A DNA stretch of 64,000 bases from Syntrophobacteraceae bacterium (GTDB lineage: Bacteria > Desulfobacterota > Syntrophobacteria > Syntrophobacterales > Syntrophobacteraceae), in NCBI GenBank assembly GCA_025454175.1, contig JALOOX010000002.1, positions 52,564-116,563 of the forward strand, read 5' to 3'. The position numbers and the translations under genes were made by a program. The notes under the pieces were generated by a model. That model was not told where the DNA came from. It was given only the letters and a program-made list of their open reading frames with translations, and did no database searches. Each line of letters starts with the position of its first letter. Position 1 is the first letter of the stretch. Positions 5,179 through 63,337 of this stretch are shown one piece after another.

Positions 5179-5179
5179 A

Positions 5180-30745: not shown

Positions 30746-30765
30746 GCATCGGACCGGGTATGCCG

Positions 30766-30807: not shown

Positions 30808-31014
30808 GTTTATGGTCCGGGGACGCAATGGGAACCACCCCGGCGAGTTTCAATGCAGGTTCGCTCGATCCGTGCGGTGGGAGCCAGGGCCGAGTTTTCA
30901 ACGGGAAGGGGGTGAGGCAGGAAGGAATCCGCTGCTGAGCGTCTCTTGCGGCGCTGAGCGGCCATCGGCAGGAAGGAAGACCCCCCACGGAAATCTTCAT
31001 GAAAGGATCCCGAC

Positions 31015-40713: not shown

Positions 40714-41414
40714 CGGTCCTCATTCCCGCCCTCAACGAAGCCGAGTCCCTGCCCCTGGTCCTGAAAGACATCCCCCCTTTCGTGGATCGCGTCATTGTCT
40801 GCGACAACGGCTCCACGGACGGAACCTTCGAGATTGCAGCTTCTCAGGCCCACCACCCCAACGTCCTGGCGGTCCGGGAGATGAGGCGCGGATACGGCAG
40901 CGCATGTCTCAAGGCCATGTCGGCCCTGACGGATGAGGATCTCGTGGTCTTTCTGGATGCCGACGGGAGCGACCATGCCGAGCTCATGGGCCGCCTCCTG
41001 GACCCGCTGCTGGACGGGGCTGATCTGTGCCTATCGAACCGTTTCACCCCGCGTCTCCATCCGGGAGCCCTGTCCCTCCCCCAGGTTTTCGGAAACAAGC
41101 TGGCTGTCCTCCTGGTGCGGCTGCTCTGGGGGTTCGAATATCGGGATCTGGGGCCCTTCCGGGCCGTCAGGCGCACAGCGCTGGAGCGACTGAGCATGCG
41201 CGACGCCACGTTCGGCTGGACCATCGAAATGCAGGTGAAGGCGCTCGATGCCGGACTGCGCATCGCCCAGGTCGACTTGCCGTATCGAGGTCGTGCCGGC
41301 GGGAAATCCAAAATCAGCGGCACTTTTTCGGGGGTGGTCCGGGCCGGAGTCAAGATCATTGCCACCATCCTCGCGTATCGGGTGGCTATGGATTTGGCTG
41401 ACCCCCCGCATTGA
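40692..41414 (+). CDS. family 2 glycosyltransferase (polyprenol-phosphate sugar synthase-like)
   Basis: LAVLIPALNEAESLP, VCDNGSTDGT, FLDADGSD (DxD). GTG 40692 is preceded by TGGAGG. The track ORF start at 40209 is an out-of-frame overlap of the previous gene. Confidence 0.8.
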   Translation: MYRGKKLAVLIPALNEAESLPLVLKDIPPFVDRVIVCDNGSTDGTFEIAASQAHHPNVLAVREMRRGYGSACLKAMSALTDEDLVVFLDADGSDHAELMGRLLDPLLDGADLCLSNRFTPRLHPGALSLPQVFGNKLAVLLVRLLWGFEYRDLGPFRAVRRTALERLSMRDATFGWTIEMQVKALDAGLRIAQVDLPYRGRAGGKSKISGTFSGVVRAGVKIIATILAYRVAMDLADPPH

Positions 41415-41428
41415 TATGGAGGAAGCCA

Positions 41429-42913
41429 ATGGCGAATTTTGACTATGACGTGGGAATCATTGGAGGAGGGGCCGCGGGCCTGACGGTCGCGGCCGGCGTG
41501 AGCCAGCTCGGGGCCAGGACGCTCCTCATCGAAAGAGAGGGTCGCCTGGGAGGGGACTGCCTGCACTATGGGTGCGTGCCGAGCAAGACCTTGATCAAAT
41601 CGGCCCAAGTCTATCACATGATGAGCCATGCGGACCGTTATGGGCTACCGGATATTCAGCCGGGCCCGGTTGATTTCCGCAGAGTGTCCTCGAGGATTCG
41701 GGGGGTGATCGACCGGATTCAGGAACATGACTCGGTGGAGCGTTTCTGCAGCCTGGGAGTCAAGGTGGAGCTCGGTGACGCGACTTTCATGGATGAGTAT
41801 ACCGTTGCCGTCAATGGACAACGTGTCACGGCGGCCCGCTGGGTCATAGCGACGGGGTCCTCGCCTGCCGTTCCGGAGATACCCGGCCTCGATGAAACGC
41901 CGTTTCTGACCAACAGGGACATCTTTTACATGGACTCCCTGCCCAAATCACTGGTTGTCCTGGGAGCTGGTCCCGTCGGCATCGAGATGGCTCAGGCTTT
42001 TGGCCGGCTTGGGAGCAACGTCACGGTGATCCAGCGCGCGGGGCAGATTCTCGTCCGCGAGGACCGGGATATGGCCGATGCGGTCATGGCCCATCTCGTT
42101 GACGAGGGTGTGACGGTTCACCTCAACGCCGCCGTCATGAGGGTTCGCGATCTGGGTCATGCTCGGGAAGTGGTGGTCGAGGACGGCGACGGGTTCGAGC
42201 ACACCCTGGAGACCGAGGCGATCCTGGTGGCCCTGGGCAGGTCGGTCAATGTGGAAGGGCTGGGGCTTTTGAACGCGGGGGTCGACTACAGTGCCGGGGG
42301 CATCGAGGTCGACGCGAGGCTCAGGACCTCCCAGAAGCACATCTTCGCGGCAGGAGACGTGACGGGCAAGTACCAGTTCACCCACGCCGCCGGCTACGAG
42401 GGCGGCATCATCGTGGTCAACGCCGTGCTGCGTCTTCCCCGCAGGACGGACTACACCTGGTTTCCGCACGCCACATACTGCGACCCGGAGCTGGCGTCCA
42501 TCGGCATGAACGAAACGGCCGCCGGGAAAGCCGAAGTCGAGGTCAAGGTCTGGAAGGAGGAATTCAGAGGCAACGATCGCTCACTGGCCGAAGGCCACGA
42601 CACGGGGTTTCTCAAGATGCTGGTCGATAAGCGGGAGAACGTTATGGGCATTCAAATCCTCGGGCCCCACGCCGGGGATCTCATCAGCGAATGGGTCGCG
42701 GTGCTCAATGGGAAAGTCAAGCTTTCGACCCTTGCGGGCGCGGTTCATCCCTATCCCACCCTGGGTGAGATCAACAAACGGGTGGCGGGAAGCTTGCTGG
42801 CGCCCAAGCTCTTCTCCGAGTCTGTCCGCAGGAAGCTCAAGTTCTTTTTCAACCTGAAGGGCCGCGCATGCGAGCCGAGTGCTGCTTCTTCGACCATCAC
42901 GACTGAAAGGTGA
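41429..42913 (+). CDS. pyridine nucleotide-disulfide oxidoreductase (dihydrolipoyl dehydrogenase/MerA-like, class I)
   Basis: [12 protein letters not shown] motif, redox-active [13 protein letters not shown], a second Rossmann [11 protein letters not shown], and a C-terminal dimerisation domain with HPYPTLGE. Confidence 0.85.
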
Positions 42914-45764: not shown

Positions 45765-47345
45765 ATGGAGGTCACGACGGAAAAATTGCCCGGCGGCGCT
45801 GCTTCGGAGCCCGTTGAACGGGCGACGGCGCTTTGCGAAACGACGGACCTGGGGCTTTCGAGGCGCCAGTGCATCAGCCCCGAACCGCTGGATCCCTGCA
45901 CCATCGTGATCTTCGGGGCTTCCGGCGATCTCGCGGCCCGCAAGCTCATTCCCGCGCTCTTCAACCTGTTCCTGAACGGAGGTCTTCCGGATCGCCTGCG
46001 CATCGTGGGGTGTGCCCGAACGCCGATGGAGGAGGATGCATTCCGGGACAGGATGCGCCCGGCGGCCGGGGTCCCGGCCCGGGAAGACGGATCGCGCTGG
46101 GAGAGCTTCGCCGCGATGCTCCACTATCAGGCCGTGGATTACACGGACCCCTCGACTTTCGATGAGCTGGCCGGTTTTCTGCGCCGACTGGAAGGCGATG
46201 CCCGAGCCGGCGGCAACCGCATTTTCTACCTGGCTGTTCCTCCCGTTCTTTATGAGCTGGTGGCCCGGCGCATCGGGGAGGCCGGCCTTGCGGAAGAAAA
46301 CGCCGACGGGAACGGTTGGTCGCGCATTGTCGTGGAGAAGCCTTTCGGACACGATCTCCCGACGGCCATGGCCCTGGATCGCTCTCTCCACGAAAGCTTC
46401 AGGGAGCATCAGGTCTTCCGGATCGACCACTATCTGGCCAAGGAAACGGTCCAGAACGTGCTCATCTTCCGTTTTGCCAACGCCATCTTCGAGCCCGTGT
46501 GGAACCGGCGCTACGTCAGCCGGGTGCGCATCCTGGCCGCTGAGACCCTCGGGATCGAGCACCGGGCCGGCTACTACGAGGCGGCGGGCGTGCTTCGGGA
46601 CATGTTCCAGAACCACATGATGCAGCTCCTGGCACTCATTGCCATGGAGCCGCCTCCCCGTTTCGAGACCGACTGGGTCATGGACGAGAAGACCAAGGTC
46701 TTCCGGGCGCTCAGGCCCTTTCCCGTGGAAAACCCTTATGAAAACCTGATTCTTGGCCAGTATGGACGGGGGGCCATCGACGGCGCGGCGGTTCCCGGAT
46801 ACCGTGAAGAACCGGGGGTTCGGAGCGATTCCCTCACCCCCACCTTCGCCTCCATGAAGCTCCACATCGACAACTGGCGCTGGCAGGGCGTCCCTTTCCT
46901 CCTGACGTCGGGCAAGCGGCTGGACAGGAAGGTGACGGAGATCAACATCGAGTTCCGGGAAGTGCCCCATTCGATCTTCCGTAACATTCTCGGGGAAAGG
47001 GTGGAAGCCAACCGGCTCACCCTGGGGATCTACCCCGAGGAGAAGATCAGCCTCATCTTTCAGACCAAGAATCCCGGCGCCGCCCTGCGACTGCGGTCCG
47101 TCACCATGGACTTCCACTACAGTCAGAGCTACGGCGGGCCTGTGCTGGATGCCTACGAAAAGGTGCTCATCGACTGTATCCGCGGCGATCGGATGCTCTT
47201 CTGGAGGCAGGACGGGGTCGAGCTGAGCTGGTCGTTCCTCTCACCCATCCTTGAGCGTTGCGAGGAGTGTGAAAACCGCAGCCGGATGCTGCACCTTTAT
47301 GAAGCCGGCAGCATGGGGCCGGCGGATGCTCTTGACCTGAGTTAA
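45765..47345 (+). CDS. zwf: glucose-6-phosphate 1-dehydrogenase
   Basis: IFGASGDLAARKLIPALF, RIDHYLAKE and EKPFGHDL motifs. Confidence 0.93.
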   Translation: MEVTTEKLPGGAASEPVERATALCETTDLGLSRRQCISPEPLDPCTIVIFGASGDLAARKLIPALFNLFLNGGLPDRLRIVGCARTPMEEDAFRDRMRPAAGVPAREDGSRWESFAAMLHYQAVDYTDPSTFDELAGFLRRLEGDARAGGNRIFYLAVPPVLYELVARRIGEAGLAEENADGNGWSRIVVEKPFGHDLPTAMALDRSLHESFREHQVFRIDHYLAKETVQNVLIFRFANAIFEPVWNRRYVSRVRILAAETLGIEHRAGYYEAAGVLRDMFQNHMMQLLALIAMEPPPRFETDWVMDEKTKVFRALRPFPVENPYENLILGQYGRGAIDGAAVPGYREEPGVRSDSLTPTFASMKLHIDNWRWQGVPFLLTSGKRLDRKVTEINIEFREVPHSIFRNILGERVEANRLTLGIYPEEKISLIFQTKNPGAALRLRSVTMDFHYSQSYGGPVLDAYEKVLIDCIRGDRMLFWRQDGVELSWSFLSPILERCEECENRSRMLHLYEAGSMGPADALDLS

Positions 47346-47485
47346 AAGAGGAGAATCTCGATCGTGCTGACTGGAGCCTCAATGAATGACCGACGCGACG
47401 TCCCGGGGTCTTGTCCTCTCGGGTGGGCGGGGCGTTGATCCCCGCCGTCGCCGGGGATGTTCCGGGTGAGGATGGAAGGATCGAT

Positions 47486-48193
47486 ATGGGCATGGAGCGC
47501 GGAGCCATCCAGAAAGCAGCCGTTGTCCTGGGAATCGGGATACTCATCGGGCTTTTCATCCTGCTGGACCTGGATCGATATCTCACGCTGAGCTTCCTCA
47601 AGGAATCCAGGGATTCCTTCGTGGCAACCTATGAACGGAGTCCCGCCCTGGTCATCGGGACCTATTTTCTGATTTACACCCTGGTCGCGGCGTTCTCGGT
47701 GCCGGGAGCCGTCGTCATGACCCTGGCGGGAGGGGCTCTCCTGGGGCTTTTCGTGGGGACGGTGGTGGTGTCCTTCGCCAGCACCATCGGAGCCACCCTG
47801 GCGTGCTTCATTTCCAGGTTTCTTCTCAGGGACTGGGTTCAGGGCAGGTTTGGCGACAAGCTCCAGTCCATCAACCGCGGCATCGAGGGAGAGGGGGCAT
47901 TCTATCTTTTTACGCTGAGGCTGGTCCCCATCTTCCCTTTCTTTGTGGTCAACCTTGCCATGGGGCTCACCCGGATGCCCCTGCCGACTTATTACTGGGT
48001 TTCGCAGCTCGGGATGTTCCCGGCTACCCTGGTGTACGTGAATGCGGGAAGGGAGCTGGGGAGGATCGACTCCCCGGCGGGCATCCTGTCGCCAGGCCTC
48101 CTGATCTCGCTGGCCATCCTGGGGCTTTTCCCCATCGGGGTCAAAAAGACCCTCGCCTGGTACCGGGCCAGGAGCCCCGCTGGTGACCCTTGA
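47486..48193 (+). CDS. TVP38/TMEM64 (DedA-superfamily) membrane protein
   Basis: LRLVPIFPFFVVNLAMGLTRMPL signature with several TM helices. Start chosen at ATG 47486. Confidence 0.8.
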   Translation: MGMERGAIQKAAVVLGIGILIGLFILLDLDRYLTLSFLKESRDSFVATYERSPALVIGTYFLIYTLVAAFSVPGAVVMTLAGGALLGLFVGTVVVSFASTIGATLACFISRFLLRDWVQGRFGDKLQSINRGIEGEGAFYLFTLRLVPIFPFFVVNLAMGLTRMPLPTYYWVSQLGMFPATLVYVNAGRELGRIDSPAGILSPGLLISLAILGLFPIGVKKTLAWYRARSPAGDP

Positions 48194-48303
48194 CCCTCTT
48201 TCAAAATCGGCATGGACCGGGACCCGGGGTCCCGGCGCGCTCCGGTCCCGCCGGGGTCGGGTCGCCGTTGGCCCTGGGTGGTGGGCGATCATTCCTGTAT
48301 TCG

Positions 48304-48897
48304 ATGATGAGCGGGAGGCGCACGAAAGTGGAGCATTCAGAGCTTTGGGAACGCGACCTGGATTCAGTGTGGGGGAAGGCTTCGACGGAAGGGAAGCTGG
48401 TGCTTCTGGACTTCTTCAACCCCGAATGAGGGGGTTGCCGTCGAATGGATGCGGTCACGTATCCAGCGGATGAAGTCATGGATTGGCTGAACCGGAGGCT
48501 GGTTCCGGTGCGCGTGAGTCATGACCATGAGCCCCTGGCCGAGGATTTCGGCGTGGTGCGGACACCCTGTCTCGTTCTTCTCGACAGGCCCGGCAGGGAG
48601 CTCCATCGCAGCGAGGGTTTCCTGTCTCCCGAGGATTTCCTGGCCTTCGTTCAGCTCGGCATGGCCAAGATGAAATATGAGCGGGCCGAATTCGAGTCGG
48701 CCATGGACCTCCTTCAGGGGCTTTTCAAGAATCATCCCGAAAGCCCGTCGCTGGCCGAGGCTGTTGTGGTGCGGGGCCGATGCCGGTACAAGTACACGCA
48801 CGACCCTCGGCACCTGAAGGAAGCCCACGAGCAGCTCCGTTCCGACTTTCCGGGGAGCGGATGGGTGCGCCGCACCCTCCAGTATCGCCTCCTGTAG
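48304..48897 (+). CDS. thioredoxin-fold protein with in-frame UGA in the redox box (selenoprotein candidate, U-G-G-C)
   Basis: Track ORFs 48190-48429 and 48445-48897 share one frame and are separated only by TGA 48427-48429. Read-through gives KLVLLDFFNPE-U-GGCRRMDAVTYPADEVMDWLNRRLVPVRV...VVRTPCLVLLD, a Thioredoxin_7-like layout with Sec at the first CxxC position. A hairpin follows. The start codon is uncertain. Confidence 0.65.
48438..48469 (+). promoter_or_regulatory. candidate bacterial SECIS hairpin
   Basis: Core stem GGATGCG/CGTATCC (48447-48464) with apical loop GTCA (GGUC context), extendable by CCG/CGG. The stem base begins 18 nt after the UGA. Confidence 0.5.
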
Positions 48898-48920
48898 CGT
48901 CGACCTCCAGCTCGGAGCCC

Positions 48921-48955
48921 ATCAACCATCAACCAGGAACCAGAAACCAGAAACC
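48921..48955 (+). repeat. heptanucleotide tandem array, 5 units (ATCAACC x2, AGGAACC, AGAAACC x2)
   Basis: Exact 7-nt phasing from 48921. The array ends 18 nt upstream of the GH15 start codon, in sense orientation. Confidence 0.9.
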
Positions 48956-48973
48956 CCAAGACAAGGTCTTTCC

Positions 48974-51016
48974 ATGCCGCGCGACGTCCCCCTTGGAAAC
49001 GGCAGGCTCCTGCTTTGCTTCGACAGTGATTCTTCCGTCCGTGACCTCTATTTTCCCCATGTGGGCCAGGAAAACCATCTGAGCGGCAATGCCTGCCGCA
49101 TGGGAGTCTTTGTGGACTCGGTTTTTTCCTGGATCGGGGATGGATGGAGGAGGGAGCTCCTCTACGAGGAGGACACGCTGGTGTCCCGGGCGGACCTGTA
49201 TCACTGGGGGATGGGCCTTCTCATCACCTGTCTTGGGGTGGTGGATTTTCACGAGAACGCCCACGTGCGGGAGATCCTGGTGGAGAATCTCCGGCCCGAG
49301 CGCCGCCAGGTGAGGCTGTTTTTTTCTCAGGATTTCAACATATCGGGCAACAGCATCGGGGATACCGCCGCATTCGACCCCGGCACCCACGGAATCGTTC
49401 ACTACAAGGGAAATCGCTACTTCCTGGTGAACGGCATGACCGACCAGTCGGAGACGCTTTCCCAGTATGCCGTGGGGGTCAAGGGCGTGGGGGGCAGGGA
49501 GGGGACATTTCGGGATGCCGAGGACGGCCAACTGTCGGGGAACCCCATCGCCCAGGGGTCCGTCGATTCGGTGATCGGTCTGCACCTGGAGCTGGAAGCC
49601 CATGCGTCCGGCTCGGCTTTCTACTGGATTTGCGCGGGTGAGAACTGGGAGGCCGTTCGCCACCTGGATGGCCTGGTCCGTCACAAGCATCCGAGGGCGC
49701 TCATCAAGCGGACCGCCGACTTCTGGACGCTCTGGGTGCGCAAGGAGCCGCTGCCCGATGGCCACCTCTCCGGGAGAATCCAGGAGCAGTACCGGCGGAG
49801 CCTTCTCATCCTGAGCACACAGCTCGACTGGCGGGGAGGCATCCTGGCGGGAAACGACTCGGACGTCATCCAGTACAACCGGGACACCTATTCGTACGTG
49901 TGGCCCCGGGACGGGGCTTTGGTGGCCAATGCCCTGGACCTGGCCGGCTATCCGGCCGACGCCCGGAGGTTTTTCGATTTCGCGGCGTCGGTCCTGGACG
50001 AGGAAGGCTACTTCCTGCACAAGTACAACCCCGACGGGAGCCTGGCCTCCTCCTGGCACCCGTGGGTCGAGGGAGGGGAGCGCCAGCTTCCGATCCAGGA
50101 GGACGAGACGGCTCTGGTGCTATGGGCATTGTGGCAGCATTTCGTGCTCTACCGCGACATCGACTTCATCAAGCCCCTGTATCGCTCCCTCATCAAGCGG
50201 GCGGCGGACTTCATGGTGTCCTACCGGGATGTCGAGACCGGCCTCCCCGGTCCGTCCTACGACCTCTGGGAGGAGCGGCGGGGCATCCCGAGCTTCACCG
50301 TGGCGGCGGTTTTCGGGGGACTGACGGCGGCGTCCCTCTTCTGTGAGATCTTCGGCGAGGATGACCAGGCCCGCGTCTACAGGAAGGCGGCCTCACAGGT
50401 CCGGGACGGCGCATCCAGCCACTTGTGGCGGGAGGATCTGGGTCGCTTCTGCCGCATGATCTCCCGGCGGCGGGATGGGACCCTGGAGGTGGACGGGACC
50501 TGTGATGCGAGCCTCTGGGGGCTCTTCAGCTTCGGGGTGTACAGGCCGGACGACCCCCGCATCACGGCCACCATGACGGCCCTGCGCGAGAAGCTTTGGG
50601 TGGGCGGAGCCACGGGGGGAATGGCACGCTACGAAAACGACGATTATCATCGGGCCGGCCGCGAGGCCACGGGGAATCCGTGGTTCATCTCGACCCTCTG
50701 GCTGGCGGACCATCTCGTCGCCACCGCCCGGACCCTCGAGGACCTGCGGGGGGCCGAGGAGCTCCTCGAGTGGGCCTGCCGTCACACGCTGCCTTCGGGA
50801 GTCATGGCCGAGCAGATCCACCCACACAGCGGGCAGCCGCTTTCGGTTTCGCCCCTCACCTGGAGCCACGCCACCTTCGTGACCACCACCCAGCGGTTCA
50901 TCCTGAGAGTCGCCGAGATCGAGTCCGAGGTCACCCCGCCCCGGCGCGACGACTGGATCGGCCGCCTTTTTGCCGAAACCTGCAACGCCATCCACGGTTC
51001 CTGCAAGGTCAGGTGA
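48974..51016 (+). CDS. glycoside hydrolase family 15 (glucoamylase/glucodextranase-like)
   Basis: 680-aa ORF. N-terminus PLGNGRLLLCFDSDSSVRDLYFPHVG and a C-terminal (alpha/alpha)6-type region (WPRDGALVANAL, YDLWEER, NPWFISTLW). Confidence 0.85.
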   Translation: MPRDVPLGNGRLLLCFDSDSSVRDLYFPHVGQENHLSGNACRMGVFVDSVFSWIGDGWRRELLYEEDTLVSRADLYHWGMGLLITCLGVVDFHENAHVREILVENLRPERRQVRLFFSQDFNISGNSIGDTAAFDPGTHGIVHYKGNRYFLVNGMTDQSETLSQYAVGVKGVGGREGTFRDAEDGQLSGNPIAQGSVDSVIGLHLELEAHASGSAFYWICAGENWEAVRHLDGLVRHKHPRALIKRTADFWTLWVRKEPLPDGHLSGRIQEQYRRSLLILSTQLDWRGGILAGNDSDVIQYNRDTYSYVWPRDGALVANALDLAGYPADARRFFDFAASVLDEEGYFLHKYNPDGSLASSWHPWVEGGERQLPIQEDETALVLWALWQHFVLYRDIDFIKPLYRSLIKRAADFMVSYRDVETGLPGPSYDLWEERRGIPSFTVAAVFGGLTAASLFCEIFGEDDQARVYRKAASQVRDGASSHLWREDLGRFCRMISRRRDGTLEVDGTCDASLWGLFSFGVYRPDDPRITATMTALREKLWVGGATGGMARYENDDYHRAGREATGNPWFISTLWLADHLVATARTLEDLRGAEELLEWACRHTLPSGVMAEQIHPHSGQPLSVSPLTWSHATFVTTTQRFILRVAEIESEVTPPRRDDWIGRLFAETCNAIHGSCKVR

Positions 51017-53490: not shown

Positions 53491-54750
53491 TCACCCGCAT
53501 CCGGTGCCGCCGCCGCTGCATCCGGAGCCGCACTTGGTGCGCCGCTTCCTGAAGACGGCCACGTTCATGTCCCCGTGGACGGCTTCGAGACCCTCCTGGA
53601 TGAATCCGCTCATTTCCACCGGGACGATGCCGGCCCGGGCCAGCACGGCCCGCGGGTTGTCCCCGATGCCGCTGACCAGCACGGCCCGGCAGTCCTTGAG
53701 CCGTTCAGCCAGGTCCATCCATCGCCGCACGCCCCCGCCCGGCTCCGGGGCTTCCCTTTCCTCGACCATCCGGAACCCGTCGCCGTTCTTCTCCCAGATC
53801 TGCAGGCGGTGCGCTTCGCCCAGGTGCTGGTTGACCAGCATGCCCTCGAGGGTGGCCACGGCCACGTACGGGCGCTCCGACGGGAAGCATCGCTCCATCG
53901 AGCAATTCACCATGGTATCGCGGAATTCGGCGGTGCGGTCGTCCTCGAGGAGACCCACGGCGTCGGCCCGGCAGCGGGTGCAGTGGTGCATCTGGGGCAG
54001 GAGCTCTCCGGCGGCGCTCCGGATAGCCGTCATCTGGTCATGGGTCGGCTCCGGGACGTTTTCGAAAGGTGTGTCCGCGTTGGGATAGACCGGCATGCAG
54101 TTGAGAATGTCCACCCCGAGGTCCGCCATGGCCCGGGCCACTTCCACCACGTGGTCGTCGTTGATCCCCGGGATCACGATGGTATTCACCTTGACCATGA
54201 TTCCCCGGGCCTTGAGGGCTCTCACGGCCTCCATCTGGCGATCGAGGAGGACCTCGGCGGCCCGGGCTCCCCGATAGATGACCTTTCCGTCCCGCACCCA
54301 GCTGGTGATTTTCCGGCCGACAGCGGGGTCCACGGCATTGATCGTCACCGTGACATGGGTGACGCCAAGATCGGCCAGCTCGTCCACGTGGGCCGGGAGT
54401 CCCAGGCCGTTGCTCGCCAGGCAGAAGAGCATGCTCGGAAATCGAGACCGCACCAGCCGCAGGGTCTCGATGGTCTGCTCGGCATTGGCCATGGGGTCCC
54501 CCGGTCCGGCGATGCCCACCACCGTAATGGAGGGCTCTTTCTCCATGACCCGTCCGAGGTAGCTCAAGGCCTGCTCCGGGGTCAGAACGGCGCTGGTGAC
54601 TCCCGGGCGGCTCTCGTTCACGCAGTCGGTCTTTCGGTTGCAGTAGTTGCACTTGATGTTGCACGCCGGCGCCACGGGGAGGTGGACGCGTCCGCATTCC
54701 CCCTTGACCTCGACATTGAAGCATGGATGGCGATCGATTTCGAGCCTCAT
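53491..54750 (-). CDS. nifB: nitrogenase cofactor biosynthesis radical-SAM protein NifB (with C-terminal NifX-like domain)
   Basis: CNIKCNYCNRK radical-SAM box and HVTVTINAVDP. C-terminal NifX/NafY-like region (VAVATLEGMLVNQHLGEA...VLVSGIGDNP). Cys/Gly tail CGSGCSGGGTGCG. GGAGG SD. Confidence 0.93.
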   Translation of the reverse strand: MRLEIDRHPCFNVEVKGECGRVHLPVAPACNIKCNYCNRKTDCVNESRPGVTSAVLTPEQALSYLGRVMEKEPSITVVGIAGPGDPMANAEQTIETLRLVRSRFPSMLFCLASNGLGLPAHVDELADLGVTHVTVTINAVDPAVGRKITSWVRDGKVIYRGARAAEVLLDRQMEAVRALKARGIMVKVNTIVIPGINDDHVVEVARAMADLGVDILNCMPVYPNADTPFENVPEPTHDQMTAIRSAAGELLPQMHHCTRCRADAVGLLEDDRTAEFRDTMVNCSMERCFPSERPYVAVATLEGMLVNQHLGEAHRLQIWEKNGDGFRMVEEREAPEPGGGVRRWMDLAERLKDCRAVLVSGIGDNPRAVLARAGIVPVEMSGFIQEGLEAVHGDMNVAVFRKRRTKCGSGCSGGGTGCG

Positions 54751-54777
54751 GGTGTCACCTCCGCGGGGATCGATGCG

Positions 54778-56226
54778 CTACAGGTAGGTGTAGCCGACGG
54801 GAGAGTCTTCCTGTTTGCGTTCCAGCAGTTCATTGATGAGCCGGTCCAGCAGCGCAAGGGCCCCCCGGTAGCCCAGGTGCAGCGTCCGCTGTCCGCCGAA
54901 CCGGTCGTGGATGGGAAATCCCACCCGGATCAGCGGGATGTTCCAGCGGCGCGCCAGGTGATAGCCCTTGCTGTGCCCCACCAGGATGTCGGGGGAGAGC
55001 CCCCGGGCTTCTTCGGCGATCTCGTGGAAGTCCACTCCCTCGCGCACTTCCGGCGGTTCGAACAGGATGTCCCGGGTCACGGCCTCGATGGCCTCCCGAA
55101 AGCCGTTGCCGGTTCCGCCCGACGCGCAGAGCACGGGCTTCACGCCGATCTCGCAGAGGAAGGCCGTGAGGCCCACCACGAGGTCCTCCTCGCCGTAGAC
55201 CACGGCGCGCTTGCCGAACACGACTTTGTGCCCGTCCACCAAGGCGTCCAGAAGCCGGCCACGCTCGAGGGCGTGCTTTTCCGGCATGCAGATCCCGGCC
55301 ACATCCTGCAGGACCTCGAAAAACCGGTCGCTCTCGCGGAGACCGATGGGCATTCCGAGTCCATGGAGGGGTACCCCGAACCTGGCTTCCAGAAGCCCAC
55401 CGGCCGTGTCGAGCCCCCGAACCATCACGGTAGGGCCGGGTTGCGTCCCGGCCCTACGCCTTGCCGACAGGGTTCGCCCGAGCTCGATGGTTGCCCTGGA
55501 GCCACCCATGCTGACCAGGTCTCGAACTGGGGTCCCGCCGCGGGGGATCTTTTCGTAGTCCTCGAGGGCCGGTCCATCCAGGGTGTCGGAATAGTCGGGA
55601 AGCAGGATGGTCCGCAGGCCGAAGTCCGCCGTGATCTCCTTCAGGTATCGGAGGTCCGCGGGCGAGACGAAGCCGGGCAGCAGGTTGACACCATCGTGCT
55701 GCTCCGTTCCCCCCGCCAGCTGGTCCACCATGGCCCGGACGGCGGCGTGGAAGCCTTCCATGTGAGTCCCGGAGTAGCTCGGCGTCGAGACGTTCACCAG
55801 GAGGGGCAGCTCGGGGCTCCCCTCCCGGGAGGCCCATTCCTGCCGGAACGCCTTGAGGATCATGGGGACATCATCCCCGATGGTTTCGGTGAGACAGGTG
55901 GTGGCGATGCCCACGAGACCCGCACCATACTTATTCATGACGTTCACCAGCCCCTGCCTGAGGTTGGCCTCGCCGCCGTAGACGGCGTGCTTCTCTCCGA
56001 GGGAGGACGAGGCGATGTCCATGGGCTCCCGGAAGTGGCTGATGATGTAGCGCCGCATGTAGGTGGCGCAGCCCTGGGACCCGTGCAGGAAGGGGATGGC
56101 CCCCTCGATGCCTCGAAAGGCCAGGCAGGCTCCCATGGGCTTGCAGAGCTTGCATGCGTTGGTGGTCGAGACATAGGGAGAGACGGGCTGCTTCGTCGTG
56201 ATCGTCGTGGTCGGATTCGTTTCCAT
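54778..56226 (-). CDS. nifN: nitrogenase MoFe cofactor biosynthesis protein NifN
   Basis: NACKLCKPMGACLAFRGIEGAIPFLHGSQGCATYMRR is NifN/NifK-like. It follows nifE. Confidence 0.9.
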   Translation of the reverse strand: METNPTTTITTKQPVSPYVSTTNACKLCKPMGACLAFRGIEGAIPFLHGSQGCATYMRRYIISHFREPMDIASSSLGEKHAVYGGEANLRQGLVNVMNKYGAGLVGIATTCLTETIGDDVPMILKAFRQEWASREGSPELPLLVNVSTPSYSGTHMEGFHAAVRAMVDQLAGGTEQHDGVNLLPGFVSPADLRYLKEITADFGLRTILLPDYSDTLDGPALEDYEKIPRGGTPVRDLVSMGGSRATIELGRTLSARRRAGTQPGPTVMVRGLDTAGGLLEARFGVPLHGLGMPIGLRESDRFFEVLQDVAGICMPEKHALERGRLLDALVDGHKVVFGKRAVVYGEEDLVVGLTAFLCEIGVKPVLCASGGTGNGFREAIEAVTRDILFEPPEVREGVDFHEIAEEARGLSPDILVGHSKGYHLARRWNIPLIRVGFPIHDRFGGQRTLHLGYRGALALLDRLINELLERKQEDSPVGYTYL

Positions 56227-56238
56227 GGCGTGGATTCC

Positions 56239-56266
56239 GGTTTCTAGTTTCTGGTTTCTGGTTTCT
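56239..56266 (-). repeat. heptanucleotide tandem array, 4 units (sense AGAAACC AGAAACC AGAAACT AGAAACC)
   Basis: The array occupies most of the 54-nt nifE-nifN spacer and ends 12 nt upstream of the nifN ATG. Confidence 0.9.
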
Positions 56267-56280
56267 GATTGCAGCTCGCT

Positions 56281-57696
56281 TCAGGCCGACAGTCCGGCCA
56301 GCCGGGTGCACCCGCCCATGGCTTTCGACGACAGCTCGCCGCCGGAGTGGGATGACTTTCTCGGCACGAAGCGCCACACGGGGCTCATGACCGAAGTGTA
56401 GATCTCGTGGGCGAAGTGAAGCATGCCCACGAATCCCTCGAGGGGCTCCTTGCGCTCGTGGTTGTGGTCGCAGAAGCCCACTCCCAGCTTGTAGGCGATG
56501 GGCCGCTCCTTGACGCCGCCCACGAAGACGTCCACGTCCTTTTCCTTGAGGAAGGATGAAAGCTCGAGGGGGTTGGAGTCGTCCACGATGATGGTGCCCT
56601 CGTCGGTGATGTCGTGGAGCTCCTGGTAGTCCTCCTCGGTGCCGGTCTGGGAGCCCACGAGAACCACCCGCATGCCGATCAGCCGAAACGCCTTGATGAG
56701 CGAGAAGGCTTTGAAGGCTCCCCCCACGTAAATGGCCGCCTTTTTGCCCTGGAGGGCCTTTCGGTACTCCTGTAGCTTCGGGTAGAGCGTGGAAAGCTCT
56801 TCTCGGACGAGGTCCCGGGCCCGCTCCATGATGCGCGGGTCCCTGTCCTCGAAGAATCGGGCCACGCTGTAGAGGGCCTCGGCCATGTCCTCCACCCCGA
56901 AGTAGGAAACGCGGATGAAAGGGGTGCCGAAGGATTCCTGCATCATCCTGGCGAGGTCGATGGTGGCCCCGGAGCACTGGACCACGTTGAGGGCCGCGCC
57001 GTGGGCCCGCTGGAGGTCGGCCACCCGACCGTCCCCCGTGATGTTGGCCACCACCTCGATGCCCATCTTCTGGAAATAGTCTCGAATGATCCAGATCTCG
57101 CCCGCCAGGTTGAAGTCCCCGAGAATGTTGATGCTGAGAGGGGAGATGGAGTCGGTCGCGCCGGTCCCCATGAGCTGGAACATGGCCCGGCAGGCCGCGT
57201 TGTATCCCGCCCGCTTGTTGCCCTTGAAGCCCTCGGACTCGACGGGAATCACCGGGATGGACTTCTCCTCGCTCACCTTGCGGCAGACCGACTTGAGGTC
57301 GTCTCCGATGAGTCCCACGATGCAGGTCGAGTAGACGAAGGCTGCCCTGGGCTGGTGCCGGTCGATGAGCTCCGTCAGGGCTCGATGGAGCTTCTCCTCG
57401 CCGCCGAAGATGACGTCCTTCTCCTGGAGGTCCGTGGAGAAGCTCAGCCGGTGCAGCTCCGGCCCCGAGGACAGTGCCCCACGGATATCCCACGTGTAGG
57501 CGGCGCAACCGATGGGGCCGTGAACGAGGTGCACGGCGTCGGCGATGGGGTACAATACCACCCGGGAGCCGCAGAAAACGCAGGCCCGCTGGCTCACTGC
57601 CCCCGCCAGGCTGTCCCGGTCGCACGACATCTGGTAAGGCTTTTCGCCCTTGCGGTGAATCTGGTCGGCCCGCTCTTCGAATATGAGGTTTTCCAT
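56281..57696 (-). CDS. nifE: nitrogenase MoFe cofactor biosynthesis protein NifE
   Basis: CVFCGSRVVLYPIADAVHLVHGPIGCAAYTWDIRG is a NifE/NifD-like core. I use ATG 57696 (MENLIFEER), preceded by GGGAG. Confidence 0.9.
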   Translation of the reverse strand: MENLIFEERADQIHRKGEKPYQMSCDRDSLAGAVSQRACVFCGSRVVLYPIADAVHLVHGPIGCAAYTWDIRGALSSGPELHRLSFSTDLQEKDVIFGGEEKLHRALTELIDRHQPRAAFVYSTCIVGLIGDDLKSVCRKVSEEKSIPVIPVESEGFKGNKRAGYNAACRAMFQLMGTGATDSISPLSINILGDFNLAGEIWIIRDYFQKMGIEVVANITGDGRVADLQRAHGAALNVVQCSGATIDLARMMQESFGTPFIRVSYFGVEDMAEALYSVARFFEDRDPRIMERARDLVREELSTLYPKLQEYRKALQGKKAAIYVGGAFKAFSLIKAFRLIGMRVVLVGSQTGTEEDYQELHDITDEGTIIVDDSNPLELSSFLKEKDVDVFVGGVKERPIAYKLGVGFCDHNHERKEPLEGFVGMLHFAHEIYTSVMSPVWRFVPRKSSHSGGELSSKAMGGCTRLAGLSA

Positions 57697-57717
57697 GGGG
57701 AGCTCCCTGGTAAGGAC

Positions 57718-57787
57718 GGTTTCAAGTTTCAAGTTCCTGGTCTCTAGTTTCTGGTTCCTGGTTTCTGGTTCCTGGTTTCTGGTTGCG
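57718..57787 (-). repeat. heptanucleotide tandem array, 10 units
   Basis: The plus strand reads ggtttca agtttca agttcct ggtctct agtttct ggttcct ggtttct ggttcct ggtttct ggttgcg. The array ends 21 nt upstream of the nifE ATG. Confidence 0.92.
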
Positions 57788-57861
57788 GATCCATGGTCGG
57801 TGGGCTCAAGCCTCCATGTCCCGGGAATACTCCTCGGAGCCCCCGGCGCATGAGGGGGTAG

Positions 57862-57881
57862 GGCCGGGCTGCGTCCCGGCC
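57862..57881 (-). other. GC hairpin just downstream of the ferredoxin stop codon
   Basis: GGCCGGG-ctgcgt-CCCGGCC (7-bp stem) with no U-tract. It could be an RNA stability or processing element rather than a terminator. Confidence 0.4.
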
Positions 57882-57888
57882 TGTGAGG

Positions 57889-58194
57889 TCAAGCCAGAAG
57901 GTATTGCTTGGCGGGGCCGCCTCCGTTTTCCAGGGAATCCAGGATGGCGTCCATGGCCTCCTCGCCGGCGATGCCCTTGTACCAGTGGCCCTGGGGGTAG
58001 ACGATGACGATGGGGCCCTCTTCGCAGAGCTTGAGGCAGCCGGTCGTCGACACCATGGCGTCGATGCCCCGGTCGGCGAGCTCCTCCTCGAGGTAGGACA
58101 CGAGCTGCATGGAGTCCTTCTTGATGCATTTCCCCCTGGCTTCGGTTCCCCTGAAGCTGGCGCAGACGAACAGGTGATAGTCGGGCTTGTGCAT
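57889..58194 (-). CDS. thioredoxin-like [2Fe-2S] ferredoxin
   Basis: 101 aa. Cys pattern HLFVCASFR...GKC...TGCLKLCEEGP is typical of (2Fe-2S) ferredoxin domain proteins found in nif clusters. Confidence 0.85.
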   Translation of the reverse strand: MHKPDYHLFVCASFRGTEARGKCIKKDSMQLVSYLEEELADRGIDAMVSTTGCLKLCEEGPIVIVYPQGHWYKGIAGEEAMDAILDSLENGGGPAKQYLLA

Positions 58195-58216
58195 GGGATG
58201 TTCCTTTGATATGGGC

Positions 58217-58237
58217 GGTTTCTGGTTTTCAGTTGTC
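58217..58237 (-). repeat. heptanucleotide array, 3 degenerate units
   Basis: The plus strand reads ggtttct ggttttc agttgtc. The array lies in the 49-nt nifK-fdx spacer, 22 nt upstream of the fdx ATG. Confidence 0.7.
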
Positions 58238-58243
58238 CTTCGG

Positions 58244-59620
58244 CTACATGACCAGCTCGAAGCTCTCCTCCGGGGCGTCGCGATCGATGCGGTCCAGGAT
58301 GGCGTCCAGGATTTTCTCCAGGAGCCGCAGGCCGCCCCGGTAGCCCACCGTCGGCATGTAGCTGTGGCCGACCCGGTCGAGGATGGGGAAGCCGAGCCTC
58401 ACGAACGGGATGTCCTCGTCCCTGGCGATGTACTTCAGATACGTGTTCCCCATCAGGAGGTCCACCGGGTCATTTCGCAGCCACTGGTGAAACAGGAACA
58501 TGTCCCCTGCGCCGCGCACGTTGACGGGGTGCGGCACCGACCGGGTGATCTCCCGGATCCGCTTTTCGAACTTCTTGCCCGGCGTTCCCGTGACGATGTG
58601 AATGGGCCACATGTCGATGGAAACCAGGAATTCCGCGAGGACGATGAGCTGATCCGGGTCCCCCACCAGGCCGACCTTTTTGCCGTAAAAGTACTGGTGC
58701 ATGTCGGCCATCACGTCCAGGAGCTGGCCCCGCTCGATGTTGAGAGAATCGGGCACGGGCACCCCCCCCATCTTGCGCAGGTGGTCGATGAAGGTGTCGG
58801 TTGCATGGAGTCCGATGGGGAGATCCAGGATCTCGCACGGGACCTTGCACCGGGCGTCCAGGGCGCGGGCCGCCGCCCCCGAGGCTGTTTCACCCAGGGC
58901 GATGGTGCCGATGGCCGCTCCCGTTCGCAGGAGCTCCTGGATCGTGACCCCGCCTTTCGGGAACATCTCGAACCTTCCCGTCTGTGGCGCATTCAGCACG
59001 TTGGAGGTGTCCGGGAAGACCGTGGCGGGAATGCCCAGCTCACCGGCGATCCTCTTGATTTCAGCCATGTCCGACGGTTCCACGTAGCCGGGAATGATGT
59101 TGATCCGATGCTCCCGGTGCGTGTCCGGCGTGGCGAAATAGTCAGCCATGGCCCTGGTCATGTTGGAGAACCCCGTCACATGGGAGCCGACAAAGCTGGG
59201 CGTGTTCGCATGGATCACATACTTCCCGGCGGGGATTCTCCCCTCGTCGGCCGCCTTTGAGGCGATCTGGGGAATGTCGTCCCCGATGGTCTCCGAAAGG
59301 CACGTGGTGTGGACGGCGATGACGTCCGGGTTGTAGATGGTGAAAATGTTGTGGATGGCCTGGATCAGGTTCGCCTGACCGCCGAAGACCGAGGAGCCCT
59401 CGGTGAAGGAGCTCGTTCCGGCCATGACCGGCTCCCTGTAATGGCGCGTCAGGGTGCTGCGGTGATAGGCGCAGCATCCCTGGGAGCCGTGGCTGTGGGG
59501 CAGGCATCGGTGGATGCCGAGGGCCGCGTACATGGCTCCTATGGGCTGGCAGGTCTTGGCCGGGTTGATGGCCAGGGCCTGGCGTTCGACAACTTCATCC
59601 GGTGTGTGTCTCAGCAGCAT
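58244..59620 (-). CDS. nifK: nitrogenase molybdenum-iron protein beta chain
   Basis: CQPIGAMYAALGIHRCLPHSHGSQGCCAYHR and the remaining NifK core. The track start (TTG 59662) lies inside the heptad array. I prefer ATG 59620 (MLLRHTPDEV), with GAGGA 7 nt upstream. Confidence 0.92.
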   Translation of the reverse strand: MLLRHTPDEVVERQALAINPAKTCQPIGAMYAALGIHRCLPHSHGSQGCCAYHRSTLTRHYREPVMAGTSSFTEGSSVFGGQANLIQAIHNIFTIYNPDVIAVHTTCLSETIGDDIPQIASKAADEGRIPAGKYVIHANTPSFVGSHVTGFSNMTRAMADYFATPDTHREHRINIIPGYVEPSDMAEIKRIAGELGIPATVFPDTSNVLNAPQTGRFEMFPKGGVTIQELLRTGAAIGTIALGETASGAAARALDARCKVPCEILDLPIGLHATDTFIDHLRKMGGVPVPDSLNIERGQLLDVMADMHQYFYGKKVGLVGDPDQLIVLAEFLVSIDMWPIHIVTGTPGKKFEKRIREITRSVPHPVNVRGAGDMFLFHQWLRNDPVDLLMGNTYLKYIARDEDIPFVRLGFPILDRVGHSYMPTVGYRGGLRLLEKILDAILDRIDRDAPEESFELVM

Positions 59621-59647
59621 GGTTTTATCCTCGGTCCCTGTGGGAAC

Positions 59648-59696
59648 GGTTTCAGGTTTCAAGTTTCAGGTTTCAAGTTTCTGGTTTCTGGTTATG
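59648..59696 (-). repeat. heptanucleotide tandem array, 7 units (sense TGAAACC/TGAAACT/AGAAACC)
   Basis: The plus strand reads ggtttca ggtttca agtttca ggtttca agtttct ggtttct ggttatg. The array ends 27 nt upstream of the nifK ATG. Confidence 0.92.
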
Positions 59697-59703
59697 GATT
59701 ATT

Positions 59704-59724
59704 GACTTCCGACTTCCGACTTTC
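59704..59724 (-). repeat. second heptamer array, 3 units (sense GAAAGTC GGAAGTC GGAAGTC)
   Basis: The plus strand reads gacttcc gacttcc gactttc. The last unit overlaps the nifD stop codon (59723-59725). Confidence 0.85.
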
Positions 59725-61378
59725 AGTCGACGCCGTAGGTGGCCGTGATCTCGGGGTTTTCCTGCCAGGGGGCCTTGAGGTAGCTCCAGACCCTGCTGTT
59801 CACCATGCGGTCGATCTCTTTGTAGAAATTGACTGCGCCGCCGAACCCCGCGTACGGTCCCCCCGAGTCGTAGCTGTGGAGCTGTTTCATGGGTGTGCCG
59901 CTCTTCTGCACGGCGAATTTCTCCTTGATGCCCGCGCAGACGAGGTCCGGCTTGTAGATCTCGATGAGCTTCTCGGTTTCGAACTGGCTGATGTCGTCGA
60001 TGACCAGTCTGCCCTCGTCCATGTCCGGCATCATGCCCTCGTAGTCATGGAGGGTGAAGCCGCATGCTTCGAGCCGTTCGAGCTCCTCGGCCGACTTTCG
60101 GGGCCGGTAGCGATGCTCGTCGGGATGGACCTCGAGCTCCTCGATGTTGCGGCTGTCGGCGTCCACCTTGATGGTGGGCAGCACCCGGCGCCCCTCGTAA
60201 TCGTCGCGGTGGGCGAACTCGTACCCGGCCGAGAGCACCTTCATGCCCATCTCCTTGAACAGCTCCTGGTAGTGGTGGGCCCGGGAGCCTCCCACGAAGA
60301 GCATCACCGTTTTGCCCTCAGTCCGGGGCCTGATCTCCGCCAGGGCCTCCTCCACGGCGAACATCTCTTTGGCGATGACTTCCTCCACCCGCTCCATGAG
60401 CTTCGGGTCCCCGAAATACTGGGCGATCTTGCGGAGGGACTTGGCCGAGGCCTTGGCCCCGATGAAGTTCACCTTGATCCAGGGGATGCCGAATTTCGTC
60501 TCCATCATCTCGGCCACGTAGTTGATGGAGCGGTGGCACATGATGCAGTTGAGATCCGCCGTGTGGGCGTTGGCGAAGGCGTCGATGCTCGAATTGCCGC
60601 TGAAGGTCGAAACCAGCGTGATGCCGCATTCCTCGAGGAGGCCCTCGATGACGAAGGCGTCTCCCCCGATGTTGTACTCGCCGAGCAGGTTGATCTTGAA
60701 TTCACCGCCCCGGTCCGTGTCGTCCAGGCCCACCACGTGGGTGAAGATGCCGTTGTTGGCGATGTGATGACCGGCCGACTGGCTCACGCCCTTGTAGCCC
60801 TCGCAGCTGAAGGCGAAGATGTTCACGCCCAGCTTCTCCTTCATCTCGCGGGTCACCGCGTGGACGTCGTCTCCGATGAGCCCCACGGGACACGTCGAGA
60901 ACACGGCGATGGCCTTGGGGTGAAAGAGATCGTAGGCCTCCTGGATGGCGACCCGGAGCTTCTTCTCGCCGCCGAAGACGATCTGCTCCTCCTGCATGTC
61001 CGTCGAAAAGCAGTAGGTCATGTAGTTCTCGTCCGCATGGCTCGGCGGCCTGGTCTGGTTGCGGCGGGTCAGCCAGCTGTAGAACCCGCAGCCGATGGGT
61101 CCGTGGGTGATGTTCACGATGTCCCGGGTCGGCCCCAGGACGACACCCTTGCAGCCGGCGTAGGTGCAGCCGCGCTGGGTGATGATGCCCGGGATGGTCT
61201 TGACGTTGGCCTGAATTTCCGGCACGCAGCCGCCTTCATCCGTGGTGTTGATGATGATGGACTTGGCGCGCTTGCGGGCGACTTTCGTCGGGTACTTCTC
61301 GATGAGCTCGCCCTTCACCTCTTCCGGTGGGATTTCCTCCGGCAGCCGGCATTCCGCTGAATAAGGGATTTTGGTCAT
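59723..61378 (-). CDS. nifD: nitrogenase molybdenum-iron protein alpha chain (long, anaerobe-type with about 50-aa insertion)
   Basis: GCTYAGCKGVVLGPTRDIVNITHGPIGCGFYSW. 551 aa. The insertion LPTIKVDADSRNIEELEVHPDEHRYRPRKSAEELERLEACGF resembles the clostridial-type NifD insertion. AGGAGA SD. Confidence 0.94.
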   Translation of the reverse strand: MTKIPYSAECRLPEEIPPEEVKGELIEKYPTKVARKRAKSIIINTTDEGGCVPEIQANVKTIPGIITQRGCTYAGCKGVVLGPTRDIVNITHGPIGCGFYSWLTRRNQTRPPSHADENYMTYCFSTDMQEEQIVFGGEKKLRVAIQEAYDLFHPKAIAVFSTCPVGLIGDDVHAVTREMKEKLGVNIFAFSCEGYKGVSQSAGHHIANNGIFTHVVGLDDTDRGGEFKINLLGEYNIGGDAFVIEGLLEECGITLVSTFSGNSSIDAFANAHTADLNCIMCHRSINYVAEMMETKFGIPWIKVNFIGAKASAKSLRKIAQYFGDPKLMERVEEVIAKEMFAVEEALAEIRPRTEGKTVMLFVGGSRAHHYQELFKEMGMKVLSAGYEFAHRDDYEGRRVLPTIKVDADSRNIEELEVHPDEHRYRPRKSAEELERLEACGFTLHDYEGMMPDMDEGRLVIDDISQFETEKLIEIYKPDLVCAGIKEKFAVQKSGTPMKQLHSYDSGGPYAGFGGAVNFYKEIDRMVNSRVWSYLKAPWQENPEITATYGVD

Positions 61379-61512
61379 CTTGGGGCTTCTCCTGTCGAGG
61401 GCGCAGGACCCTCTGTCGTCATCCCCGTGAAAACGAGGAGTCTGGTGATGCGAGTGGTTCCAGGTTCCCGATCTTCCGGGAATGCTGATTTCAAGGCCTC
61501 GACGGCGGCTAC

Positions 61513-62246: not shown

Positions 62247-62324
62247 GGTTTCTTACTCTCCTTGAGGGACAATACCCTCGGCAGGGGTGCGGGTGGATCG
62301 GTGCAGCCGGGATGGGCTCGTCGG

Positions 62325-63337
<1,013 letters not shown>

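Follow-up and report, generated by a model that had tools for sequence, protein, structure and literature searches.

Pairs of selenocysteine (Sec, U) and cysteine (Cys, C) in UxxC proteins of the thioredoxin fold are textbook prokaryotic selenoproteins. The gene described here, at 48328-48897 on the forward strand of a 64,000-nucleotide (64-kb) stretch of DNA from a member of the Syntrophobacteraceae (referred to throughout as the window), is interrupted by an in-frame TGA at 48427-48429 that is very probably a genuine Sec codon in a thioredoxin-like active site. We consider it highly likely that the whole of 48328-48897 encodes a single 189-residue cytoplasmic thiol/selenol-disulfide oxidoreductase of the thioredoxin fold, with a predicted Sec as the first residue of its U-G-G-C box, decoded through a selenocysteine insertion sequence (SECIS).

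Comparison with described selenoproteins

The 'thiol:disulfide interchange protein' family of selenoproteins is defined by the domain PF13098 together with a UxxC motif and is represented by WP_011366075.1 (PMC9312934, PMC13188914); 'thiol:disulfide interchange' selenoproteins have been reported in Syntrophus aciditrophicus and in Geobacter species (PMC1794560). The window gene shares with this family PF13098, UxxC and an occurrence in the Deltaproteobacteria, both being computational predictions that are likened by domain and motif alone. By the naming criteria of PF13098 plus UxxC, the window gene belongs to the family. The reviews mention neither a C-terminal TPR-like domain nor a SECIS element encoded within the peptide MDAVTYP, and neither Geobacter nor Syntrophus is among the named matches of the profile search described below. 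The 'thiol:disulfide interchange' family is said to have been predicted by Kryukov and Gladyshev in 2004. The deep-Sep paper mentions no new family of the thioredoxin type.

Sec-thioredoxin (PF00085, UxxC; Treponema denticola, Geobacter) and the Grx, DsbA-like and Prx-like selenoproteins have in common with the window protein the fold, the use of Sec for the N-terminal Cys, the existence of Cys orthologs and a SECIS immediately downstream of the codon within the open reading frame (ORF). Unlike Sec-thioredoxin, the window protein has an additional helical domain of approximately 70 residues, and the box of its family reads N-P-E/G-U-x-G-C rather than W-C-G-P-C. The domain arrangement, an N-terminal thioredoxin fold followed by a C-terminal TPR-like bundle, resembles that of the YbbN/CnoX chaperedoxins (PDB 3qou, 3qdn). 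Foldseek aligned the two over 192-194 columns, albeit loosely (TM 0.41-0.42, rmsd 11-12 Å, 11% identity), and the window protein is shorter, at 189 residues compared with approximately 284. E. coli CnoX is not known to have a CxxC, whereas the window protein has a full UxxC. The thioredoxin domain by itself superposes on the C-terminal domain of DsbD (DsbD-gamma; PDB 2fwf, 1vrs) at 2.8-3.3 Å.

The RNA element can be compared with the SECIS elements of E. coli fdhF and fdnG and with the bSECISearch model. All are hairpins within the coding sequence (CDS) just 3' of the UGA, with a small loop in which G is followed by U; the window sequence is unrelated to those of fdhF and fdnG, and its conserved stem is shorter (6 bp). 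GGUC stands 26 nt from the U of UGA in the window, compared with 21 nt in fdhF by our count.

Reading frame and start site

The TGA shares its frame with an ORF at 48190-48429 and another at 48445-48897, and conventional ORF calling splits the gene into ORFs of 33 and 150 amino acids. Read through, the product is ...EGKLVLLDFFNPE-U-GGC-RRMDAVTYPADEVMDWL...RTPCLVLLD...TLQYRLL, and the immediate surroundings of the TGA read ...LVLLDFFNPE-U-GGC-RRMDAVTYPADEV.... Purifying selection acts on both sides of the TGA, with dN/dS near 0.25 on each and values of 0.25-0.57 upstream and 0.14-0.26 downstream in pairs that contain the window sequence. The initial annotation had proposed that the TGA joins two same-frame ORFs, that the redox box is FFNPE-U-GGC and that coding conservation continues across the stop; the shared frame, the residues of the read-through product and the selection on both sides agree with it in all three respects. 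The features of the gene are as follows.

48328-48897, + strand: full CDS of a thioredoxin-fold predicted selenoprotein of 189 amino acids, with a GTG start, Sec as residue 34 and a TAG stop at 48895-48897
48313-48318, + strand: Shine-Dalgarno-like GGGAGG, 9 nt 5' of the GTG start, recognized from sequence
48427-48429, + strand: UGA as the predicted Sec codon, position 1 of the U-G-G-C box, equivalent to the N-terminal Cys of CxxC
48436-48438, + strand: TGC, the second (C-terminal) Cys of UxxC, residue 37, invariant in the seven-ortholog alignment A1 and present at every metagenome locus
48446-48465, + strand: SECIS hairpin within the CDS (codons for M-D-A-V-T-Y-P), indicated by fold, conservation and covariation
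48565-48567, + strand: codon of Pro80 in a T-P motif (VRTPC), the predicted position of the cis-proline loop of the thioredoxin fold (alignments A1 and A5)
48691-48891, + strand: C-terminal all-helical TPR-like domain, residues ~122-188, with helices 122-135, 141-157, 161-173 and 178-188 (pLDDT >95)

Translation was originally taken to start at ATG 48304. On sequence grounds, GTG 48328 is the more likely start, because the ATG or GTG at which each ortholog begins falls at the same place in the alignment and because GGGAGG stands 9 nt before it; inspection of the sequence 5' of the ATGs at 48304 and 48307 found no comparable purine run. The resulting 189-residue product is without a signal peptide.

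The same arrangement might be read as a true split gene, in which translation stops at the UGA and a separate 150-residue protein, free of Sec, starts from AUG 48445. This AUG lies 15 nt past the TGA, and each of the truncated database entries begins at it. However, no Shine-Dalgarno sequence precedes AUG 48445, and its three nucleotides belong to the conserved hairpin region (A18, U19 and G20). A split at this point would divide the thioredoxin fold, with strand 1 on one side and the active-site helix on the other, and would take away the nucleophile. The Cys forms are single polypeptides, and the 33-codon upstream piece has a conserved frame under purifying selection. The split would also leave unexplained why the hairpin is conserved specifically in TGA forms. 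We regard it as very improbable.

A crude scan of the window for further in-frame TGAs flanked by coding-like sequence returned just gene junctions and antisense shadows, and nothing of use came from scanning 47300-49100 for promoters and terminators.

Relatives with Sec or Cys at the same position

A search of 5.8 billion proteins returned two full-length relatives with Cys at the TGA column, P0001 (90% identity, FFNPE-C-GDC) and P0002 (82%, C-GEC), together with seven entries of 150 residues that all start with MDAVTYP. In the DNA behind these shorter entries, an in-frame TGA occupies the same column and the upstream frame is conserved. In a scan of one genome per species, the gene was confined to Syntrophobacteraceae, Syntrophobacterales and Deltaproteobacteria metagenome-assembled genomes; a metagenome scan added 36 loci, with identity down to 27%. 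The distinct DNA sequences, the window included, comprise 27 TGA forms and 12 Cys forms (TGC or TGT). With four further loci (L054-L057) added to the other 26 of these TGA forms, TGA is found at the same column in 30 distinct sequences besides that of the window, from Syntrophobacteraceae to Ca. Brocadia. The expectation that homologs would have Cys at this column was thus upheld by P0001, P0002 and the 12 Cys-form DNA sequences, which all align there.

The extent of the family was gauged in an unbiased manner with HMMER, using P0001 as the query against 1.84 billion cluster representatives, which gave 5511 matches with E no higher than 1e-3, 351 of them with E no higher than 1e-10. The best 150 of the 5511 comprise 54 two-domain proteins of full length (CxxC in the majority, SxxC or CxxS in a few), 45 proteins of ~150 residues whose first residue is exactly the Met that follows the Sec column (M-D/G-A/T-V-T/S-Y-P), 33 long multidomain proteins with the thioredoxin domain alone in common, and 18 fragments or others. 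Approximately 45% of the closest two-domain clusters, judged among these best 150, look like Sec forms. A profile search collected 206 clusters, mostly of 147-155 residues, from taxa that include Desulfobacterales, Syntrophorhabdaceae and Ca. Brocadia sinica. The DNA of three distant members, L054 (Ca. Brocadia sinica), L055 and L056, has TGA at the Sec column.

The L054 gene (6806-7453; GCA_016860665.1) begins with an N-terminal signal-peptide-like segment, MLKYVLPCLILFVAPLAVSLAAE..., and has a U-T-G-C box; its hairpin covaries (GGGUAC/GUACCC). This suggests that the anammox planctomycete version is an exported selenoprotein subfamily.

Five database proteins (P0164, P0235, P0249, P0135 and P0143) have Trp at the Sec column, as might be expected if a reassigned code gave UGA the meaning of a standard residue (Trp or Gly). 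In the window, however, TGA is a normal stop that ends 31 of the 43 annotated genes; therefore, the code is not reassigned. The Trp of P0164 (L057, 190-759) is a TGA in the DNA, and under table 11 this DNA does not give the query protein on translation. It is a gene-calling artefact, because the TGA was translated with a code in which TGA is Trp. A CxxC box with its catalytic Cys replaced by Trp would also be non-functional. Decoding as a standard amino acid is extremely improbable.

The SECIS-like hairpin

The window RNA at 48446-48465 folds as UGGAUGCG-GUCA-CGUAUCCA with a free energy of -11.2 kcal/mol (z -4.8), and none of 200 shuffled sequences folded equally well. The core common to the family is a 6-bp stem formed by 48447-48452 and 48459-48464 (GGAUGC/GUAUCC), and the loop region at 48453-48458 is GGUCAC in the window, where the family consensus is NGUNAC. 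The window hairpin gains two further pairs (U48446-A48465 and G48453-C48458), which leave a GUCA tetraloop on an 8-bp stem. Lower-stem extensions were considered as well; they are lineage-specific and out of register, and were not counted as part of the hairpin. The stem begins 16-17 nt past the A of the TGA. A GGUC-containing stem-loop had been placed 18 nt downstream of the codon; the hairpin and its GGUC (48453-48456) were borne out, whereas the spacing is 16-17 nt and not 18.

The published bacterial SECIS consensus has an apical loop of 3-9 nt, an upper stem of 4-16 bp, a G in the first two loop positions that is usually followed by G or U, a UGA-to-loop distance of 16-37 nt and a minimum free energy of -7.5 kcal/mol or lower (PMC13188914 and Fig. 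2 therein). The loop (4-6 nt) and stem (6-8 bp) of the window hairpin are within the limits, G followed by U stands at loop position 1 or 2 as the consensus demands, and the UGA-to-loop distance of 23-24 nt and the energy of -11.2 kcal/mol also fall inside. The initial description of the element as lying in the SECIS range is in this respect sound, as the hairpin agrees with the published consensus in all four of its constraints (PMC13188914).

The hairpin is written in the codons ATG GAT GCN GTN ACG TAT CCN. Among the TGA forms, the three third-codon positions within the stem are kept in 26/27, 27/27 and 26/27 sequences, whereas the loop third positions are variable (G14/C13; C10/T4/G13), and so are the ones immediately beyond the stem. 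Drift at the third positions of the stem is seen in the 12 Cys forms (GAC; ACC/ACA; TTT/CTG/TAC). All six pairs are intact in 26 of the 27 TGA forms compared with 2 of the 12 Cys forms (Fisher p ~1e-6, for sequences that are not phylogenetically independent). Paired changes occur in distant members: A-U becomes G-C in L054 and L055, where an Asp-to-Gly codon change is matched by a synonymous TAT-to-TAC change; G.U becomes A-U in L054 and L056; and U-A becomes C-G, with a bulge, in L045. In the alignment of 29 sequences, 98.9% of cells are paired, compared with 25-65% after the 3' partners have been shifted by 1-3 columns.

The full-length Cys forms have a variable peptide at the hairpin site (QMDEL, KMAAM, QKLEDT and others). 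That MDAVTYP is near-fixed in Sec forms, while the Cys forms differ in this peptide, is best explained if the RNA hairpin, and not the protein, dictates the peptide.

Mechanistically, the UGA at 48427-48429 would then not act as a stop. The hairpin that follows it after a 17-nt spacer, with a stem of 6-8 bp and a conserved G-U in the loop, would act as a bacterial SECIS and bring SelB with Sec-tRNA(Sec) to the ribosome; the dependence on SelB is presumed from the resemblance to known elements.

Retained Sec or a recent mutation

The most substantial alternative is that, in a lineage already using Cys, the TGA of the window arose recently through a one-base nonsense change (TGC to TGA) or reflects an error of sequencing or assembly, the gene being a fresh pseudogene with a relic hairpin. 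A number of observations weigh against a functional Sec codon. The two closest relatives, L007 (90% amino acid identity) and L009 (82%), carry TGC. Parsimony on the U and C states is tied, with two events either way, and makes retained Sec and a TGC-to-TGA change indistinguishable. The L007 hairpin is intact despite the Cys, so an intact hairpin alone is no proof of Sec use. The covariation is modest, with one pair changed on both sides, in 2 of the 29 sequences; the stem is under coding constraint as well; and one of the two patterns used in the metagenome scan, CR[RQE]MDAVT, selects for the hairpin-coding peptide, which biases amino acids, albeit not synonymous sites. Rfam returned chance matches and no SECIS family, either at gathering thresholds over all 64 kb or with E relaxed to 10 over 48380-48520; this null carries no information, because what defines the bacterial SECIS consensus is structure and not sequence. 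With regard to the Sec machinery, selA, selB and selD are absent from the approximately 40 Pfam-annotated genes of the 64-kb window, and ARAGORN found no tRNA in it, hence no tRNA-Sec (selC).

Other features of the gene weigh against a fresh lesion. In the window the ancestral U-G-G-C, common to the outgroup Sec forms, is retained, whereas x2 is D or E in L007 and L009, in distinct codon backgrounds (GAC and GAA). The window branch, with 6 synonymous plus 6 non-synonymous changes, is the shortest of the three. Its five amino acid changes are conservative, and several of them agree with the Sec-form outgroups. The gene contains no frameshift and no extra stop. The presence of TGA at exactly the same column in 30 other distinct sequences gives a low prior for random error.

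The flanking sequence also bears on the origin of the TGA. By the adjacent GH15 gene, the nearest relative of the window is L009 (96.2% nucleotide identity), followed by L007 (92.8%); by the thioredoxin gene it is L007 (dS 0.18), with L009 at a large distance (dS ~0.4). The two trees are discordant, so recombination or unequal rates are involved. As the L009 gene is far more diverged from the window than its GH15 flank (96% nucleotide identity), it is not the immediate ancestor allele. The Cys-form gene of L009 has 23 private amino acid changes and a broken hairpin; this suggests either allele exchange or accelerated evolution after a Sec-to-Cys switch.

Sequence comparison leads us to favour retained Sec in the window over a recent TGC-to-TGA change, because of the ancestral U-G-G-C, the shortest branch, the dN/dS on both sides and the absence of other defects in the gene. 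A recent mutation or error is unlikely.

The one direct link to the Sec machinery lies in L017, which has selD at 4494-5540 (+), 4.5 kb upstream of the thioredoxin ortholog on the same contig, and this selD carries an in-frame TGA of its own at the canonical active-site position (AAG-U-AAKIG). Past its TGA, the L017 selD ORF comprises only 314 residues, and the L005 copy (1-440) is recorded as a 293-residue product. In the L005/L017 lineage, selD is followed in turn by a small ORF, msrAB, the flavoprotein disulfide reductase, DedA, the Sec-thioredoxin gene and GH15. The Syntrophobacteraceae have very large selenoproteomes, and that of Syntrophobacter fumaroxidans is among the largest reported in bacteria (PMC9312934, PMC1794560); the window belongs to the same lineage.

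Fold, domains and predicted chemistry

For Pfam scoring, Cys was substituted for U in the window protein. The best match is Thioredoxin_2 (PF13098; E 1.3e-9, 38.7 bits compared with a cut-off of 27), and Thioredoxin (PF00085) is marginally above its cut-off (24.9 compared with 23.5 bits). The protein had been called Thioredoxin_7-like; the thioredoxin fold in that description holds, whereas the named family does not, as Thioredoxin_7 scored 23.3 bits, under its cut-off of 27. The C-terminal third gave weak matches to TPR_14, TPR_6 and YfiO, the TPR ones below their cut-offs. No NCBIfam model reached its cut-off, the best being the thioredoxin-like end of the selenoprotein TsoB (NF045694; 34.6 bits compared with 805); the VPGUxxT model (NF041383; 12.7 bits compared with a cut-off of 275) was a match to a generic thioredoxin domain only.

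The fold was examined in an AlphaFold model of P0001, the Cys form that is 90% identical to the window protein, built on an alignment of 33 sequences (pLDDT 94.4, pTM 0.89). An earlier run, on an alignment of mostly truncated sequences, gave pLDDT <50 at residues 1-80 and was discarded. The model has a canonical thioredoxin fold at residues ~8-118, followed by the TPR-like domain of five helices. Helix 35-44 has the C/U-x-x-C (residues 34-37) at its N-terminus. The model also shows the loop of T79 and P80; both residues are invariant in alignment A1 of seven orthologs, and P80 is also invariant in the 33-sequence alignment A5. The top Foldseek matches for the thioredoxin domain are DsbD-gamma and thioredoxins (probability 1.00), and a profile search of the PDB placed the domain nearest DsbD-gamma, thioredoxins and a Bacteroides 'putative disulphide-isomerase'.

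From the modelled fold and the UxxC box, we infer that the protein functions as a thioredoxin-like reductant or a thiol-disulfide exchanger. In a thioredoxin- or DsbD-gamma-like mechanism, the selenolate of Sec34 would attack a substrate disulfide (or a sulfenate or selenenylsulfide) and Cys37 would resolve the intermediate, while the TPR-like domain probably mediates the binding of a partner.

Gene context

The neighbouring genes that make up the context are listed below.

41411-42913, + strand: FAD-dependent pyridine nucleotide-disulfide oxidoreductase, class-I, with a CLHYGC redox disulfide (PF07992, PF02852; NCBIfam PRK06370-type below cut-off)
47411-48193, + strand: VTT/DedA-family membrane protein gene, upstream of the thioredoxin gene (PF09335, E 4e-23), the same neighbour being present in L001, L003, L005, L007 and L011
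48974-51016, + strand: GH15 glucoamylase-like gene, downstream (PF00723), syntenic in all close relatives

In loci of the Syntrophobacteraceae type, the gene always lies between DedA/VTT and GH15, downstream of genes for G6PD, RpiA, transketolase and the flavoprotein disulfide reductase, and in L005 and L017 the homolog of the 41411-42913 reductase immediately adjoins the VTT gene. The flavoprotein is a candidate reductase for the predicted selenoprotein, and a route in which NADPH from the adjacent pentose-phosphate genes passes through the flavoprotein disulfide reductase to the Sec-thioredoxin is a plausible candidate. In distant members, outside loci of the Syntrophobacteraceae type, the DedA, GH15 and pentose-phosphate context is not conserved; therefore, it cannot define the function of the family.

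A tandem heptamer, CCAGRAA, occurs in 2-6 copies at 48933-48954 (+), 56240-56268 (-), 57740-57782 (-), 59670-59691 (-), 16825-16846 (-) and 6312-6326 (+), with 15 matches in total compared with 0.11 expected. The repeats are mostly on the coding strand, ~8-30 nt 5' of the starts of the GH15 gene, nifK-, nifE- and nifN-like genes and an SPFH/Band_7 gene; no identified start lies downstream of the copy at 6312-6326. The heptamer is found at the equivalent place in L007, L008, L009 and L001.

The window also contains a nitrogenase cluster at 53491-63308 (-), composed of a NifH-family gene, a P-II gene, four genes of the Oxidored_nitro family and a radical-SAM NifB-like gene, which we read as nifH, P-II, nifD, nifK, nifE, nifN and nifB. 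The same cluster adjoins the L009 ortholog. A molybdenum/tungsten cofactor (Moco) riboswitch (Rfam RF01055; 57.4 bits, E 4e-11) is located at 30640-30758 (+). It precedes, by approximately 250 nt, a gene for a PBP_like_2 ABC substrate-binding protein (31003-31866) that is probably a molybdate or tungstate transporter gene. Before the riboswitch lies an ORF at 29189-30373 (+) with rhodanese and YceI-like domains, and just ahead of that are two flavin-reductase-like genes (28005-28784 and 28830-29405).

Annotation and implications for the family

The window gene and hundreds of its relatives are stored publicly as fragments of 33 and 150 residues, or with a spurious Trp. The expectation that standard gene callers would split or truncate the gene was correct, both in the 33- and 150-residue ORFs and in the database entries that begin with the Met following the Sec column. 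Among the names shown for the 206 clusters, not one is that of a selenoprotein; they include 'hypothetical', 'thioredoxin fold domain-containing', 'TolA-binding' and 'YbgF family'. This mis-annotation costs the family its redox-active N-terminus, and the artefact at the Trp column (P0164) hides selenoproteins. A family rule, consisting of the UxxC box, 8 nt and then AUGGRURCNGUNACGUAYCC (with the first A replaced by U in Brocadia-type members), would recover them.

The protein is an ordinary Sec/Cys thiol oxidoreductase of a well-known kind. What is new is at most the Sec-richness of the two-domain family, its family-specific SECIS definition and the scale of its mis-annotation. More tentatively, the thioredoxin-TPR family, with N-P-x-U-x-G-C and a SECIS in M-D/G-A/T-V-T-Y-P, may be an uncatalogued and unusually Sec-rich one that extends from the Syntrophobacteraceae to anammox Planctomycetes, where it has a signal peptide. 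The same tentative proposal extends to the Syntrophobacteraceae, where the protein may act as terminal thiol/selenol carrier in a conserved module made up of a pentose-phosphate source of NADPH, the flavoprotein disulfide reductase, DedA and the Sec-thioredoxin, located beside selD and msrAB in one lineage.

The main value of these observations lies in annotation, and the understanding of how selenoproteins work is unchanged by them. The family is nonetheless a clean natural case of a SECIS that constrains the peptide it encodes, and the recent Sec-to-Cys switches in close relatives, with Gly-to-Asp/Glu at x2 in the two Cys relatives of the window, could be used to study the retention of Sec versus its replacement.

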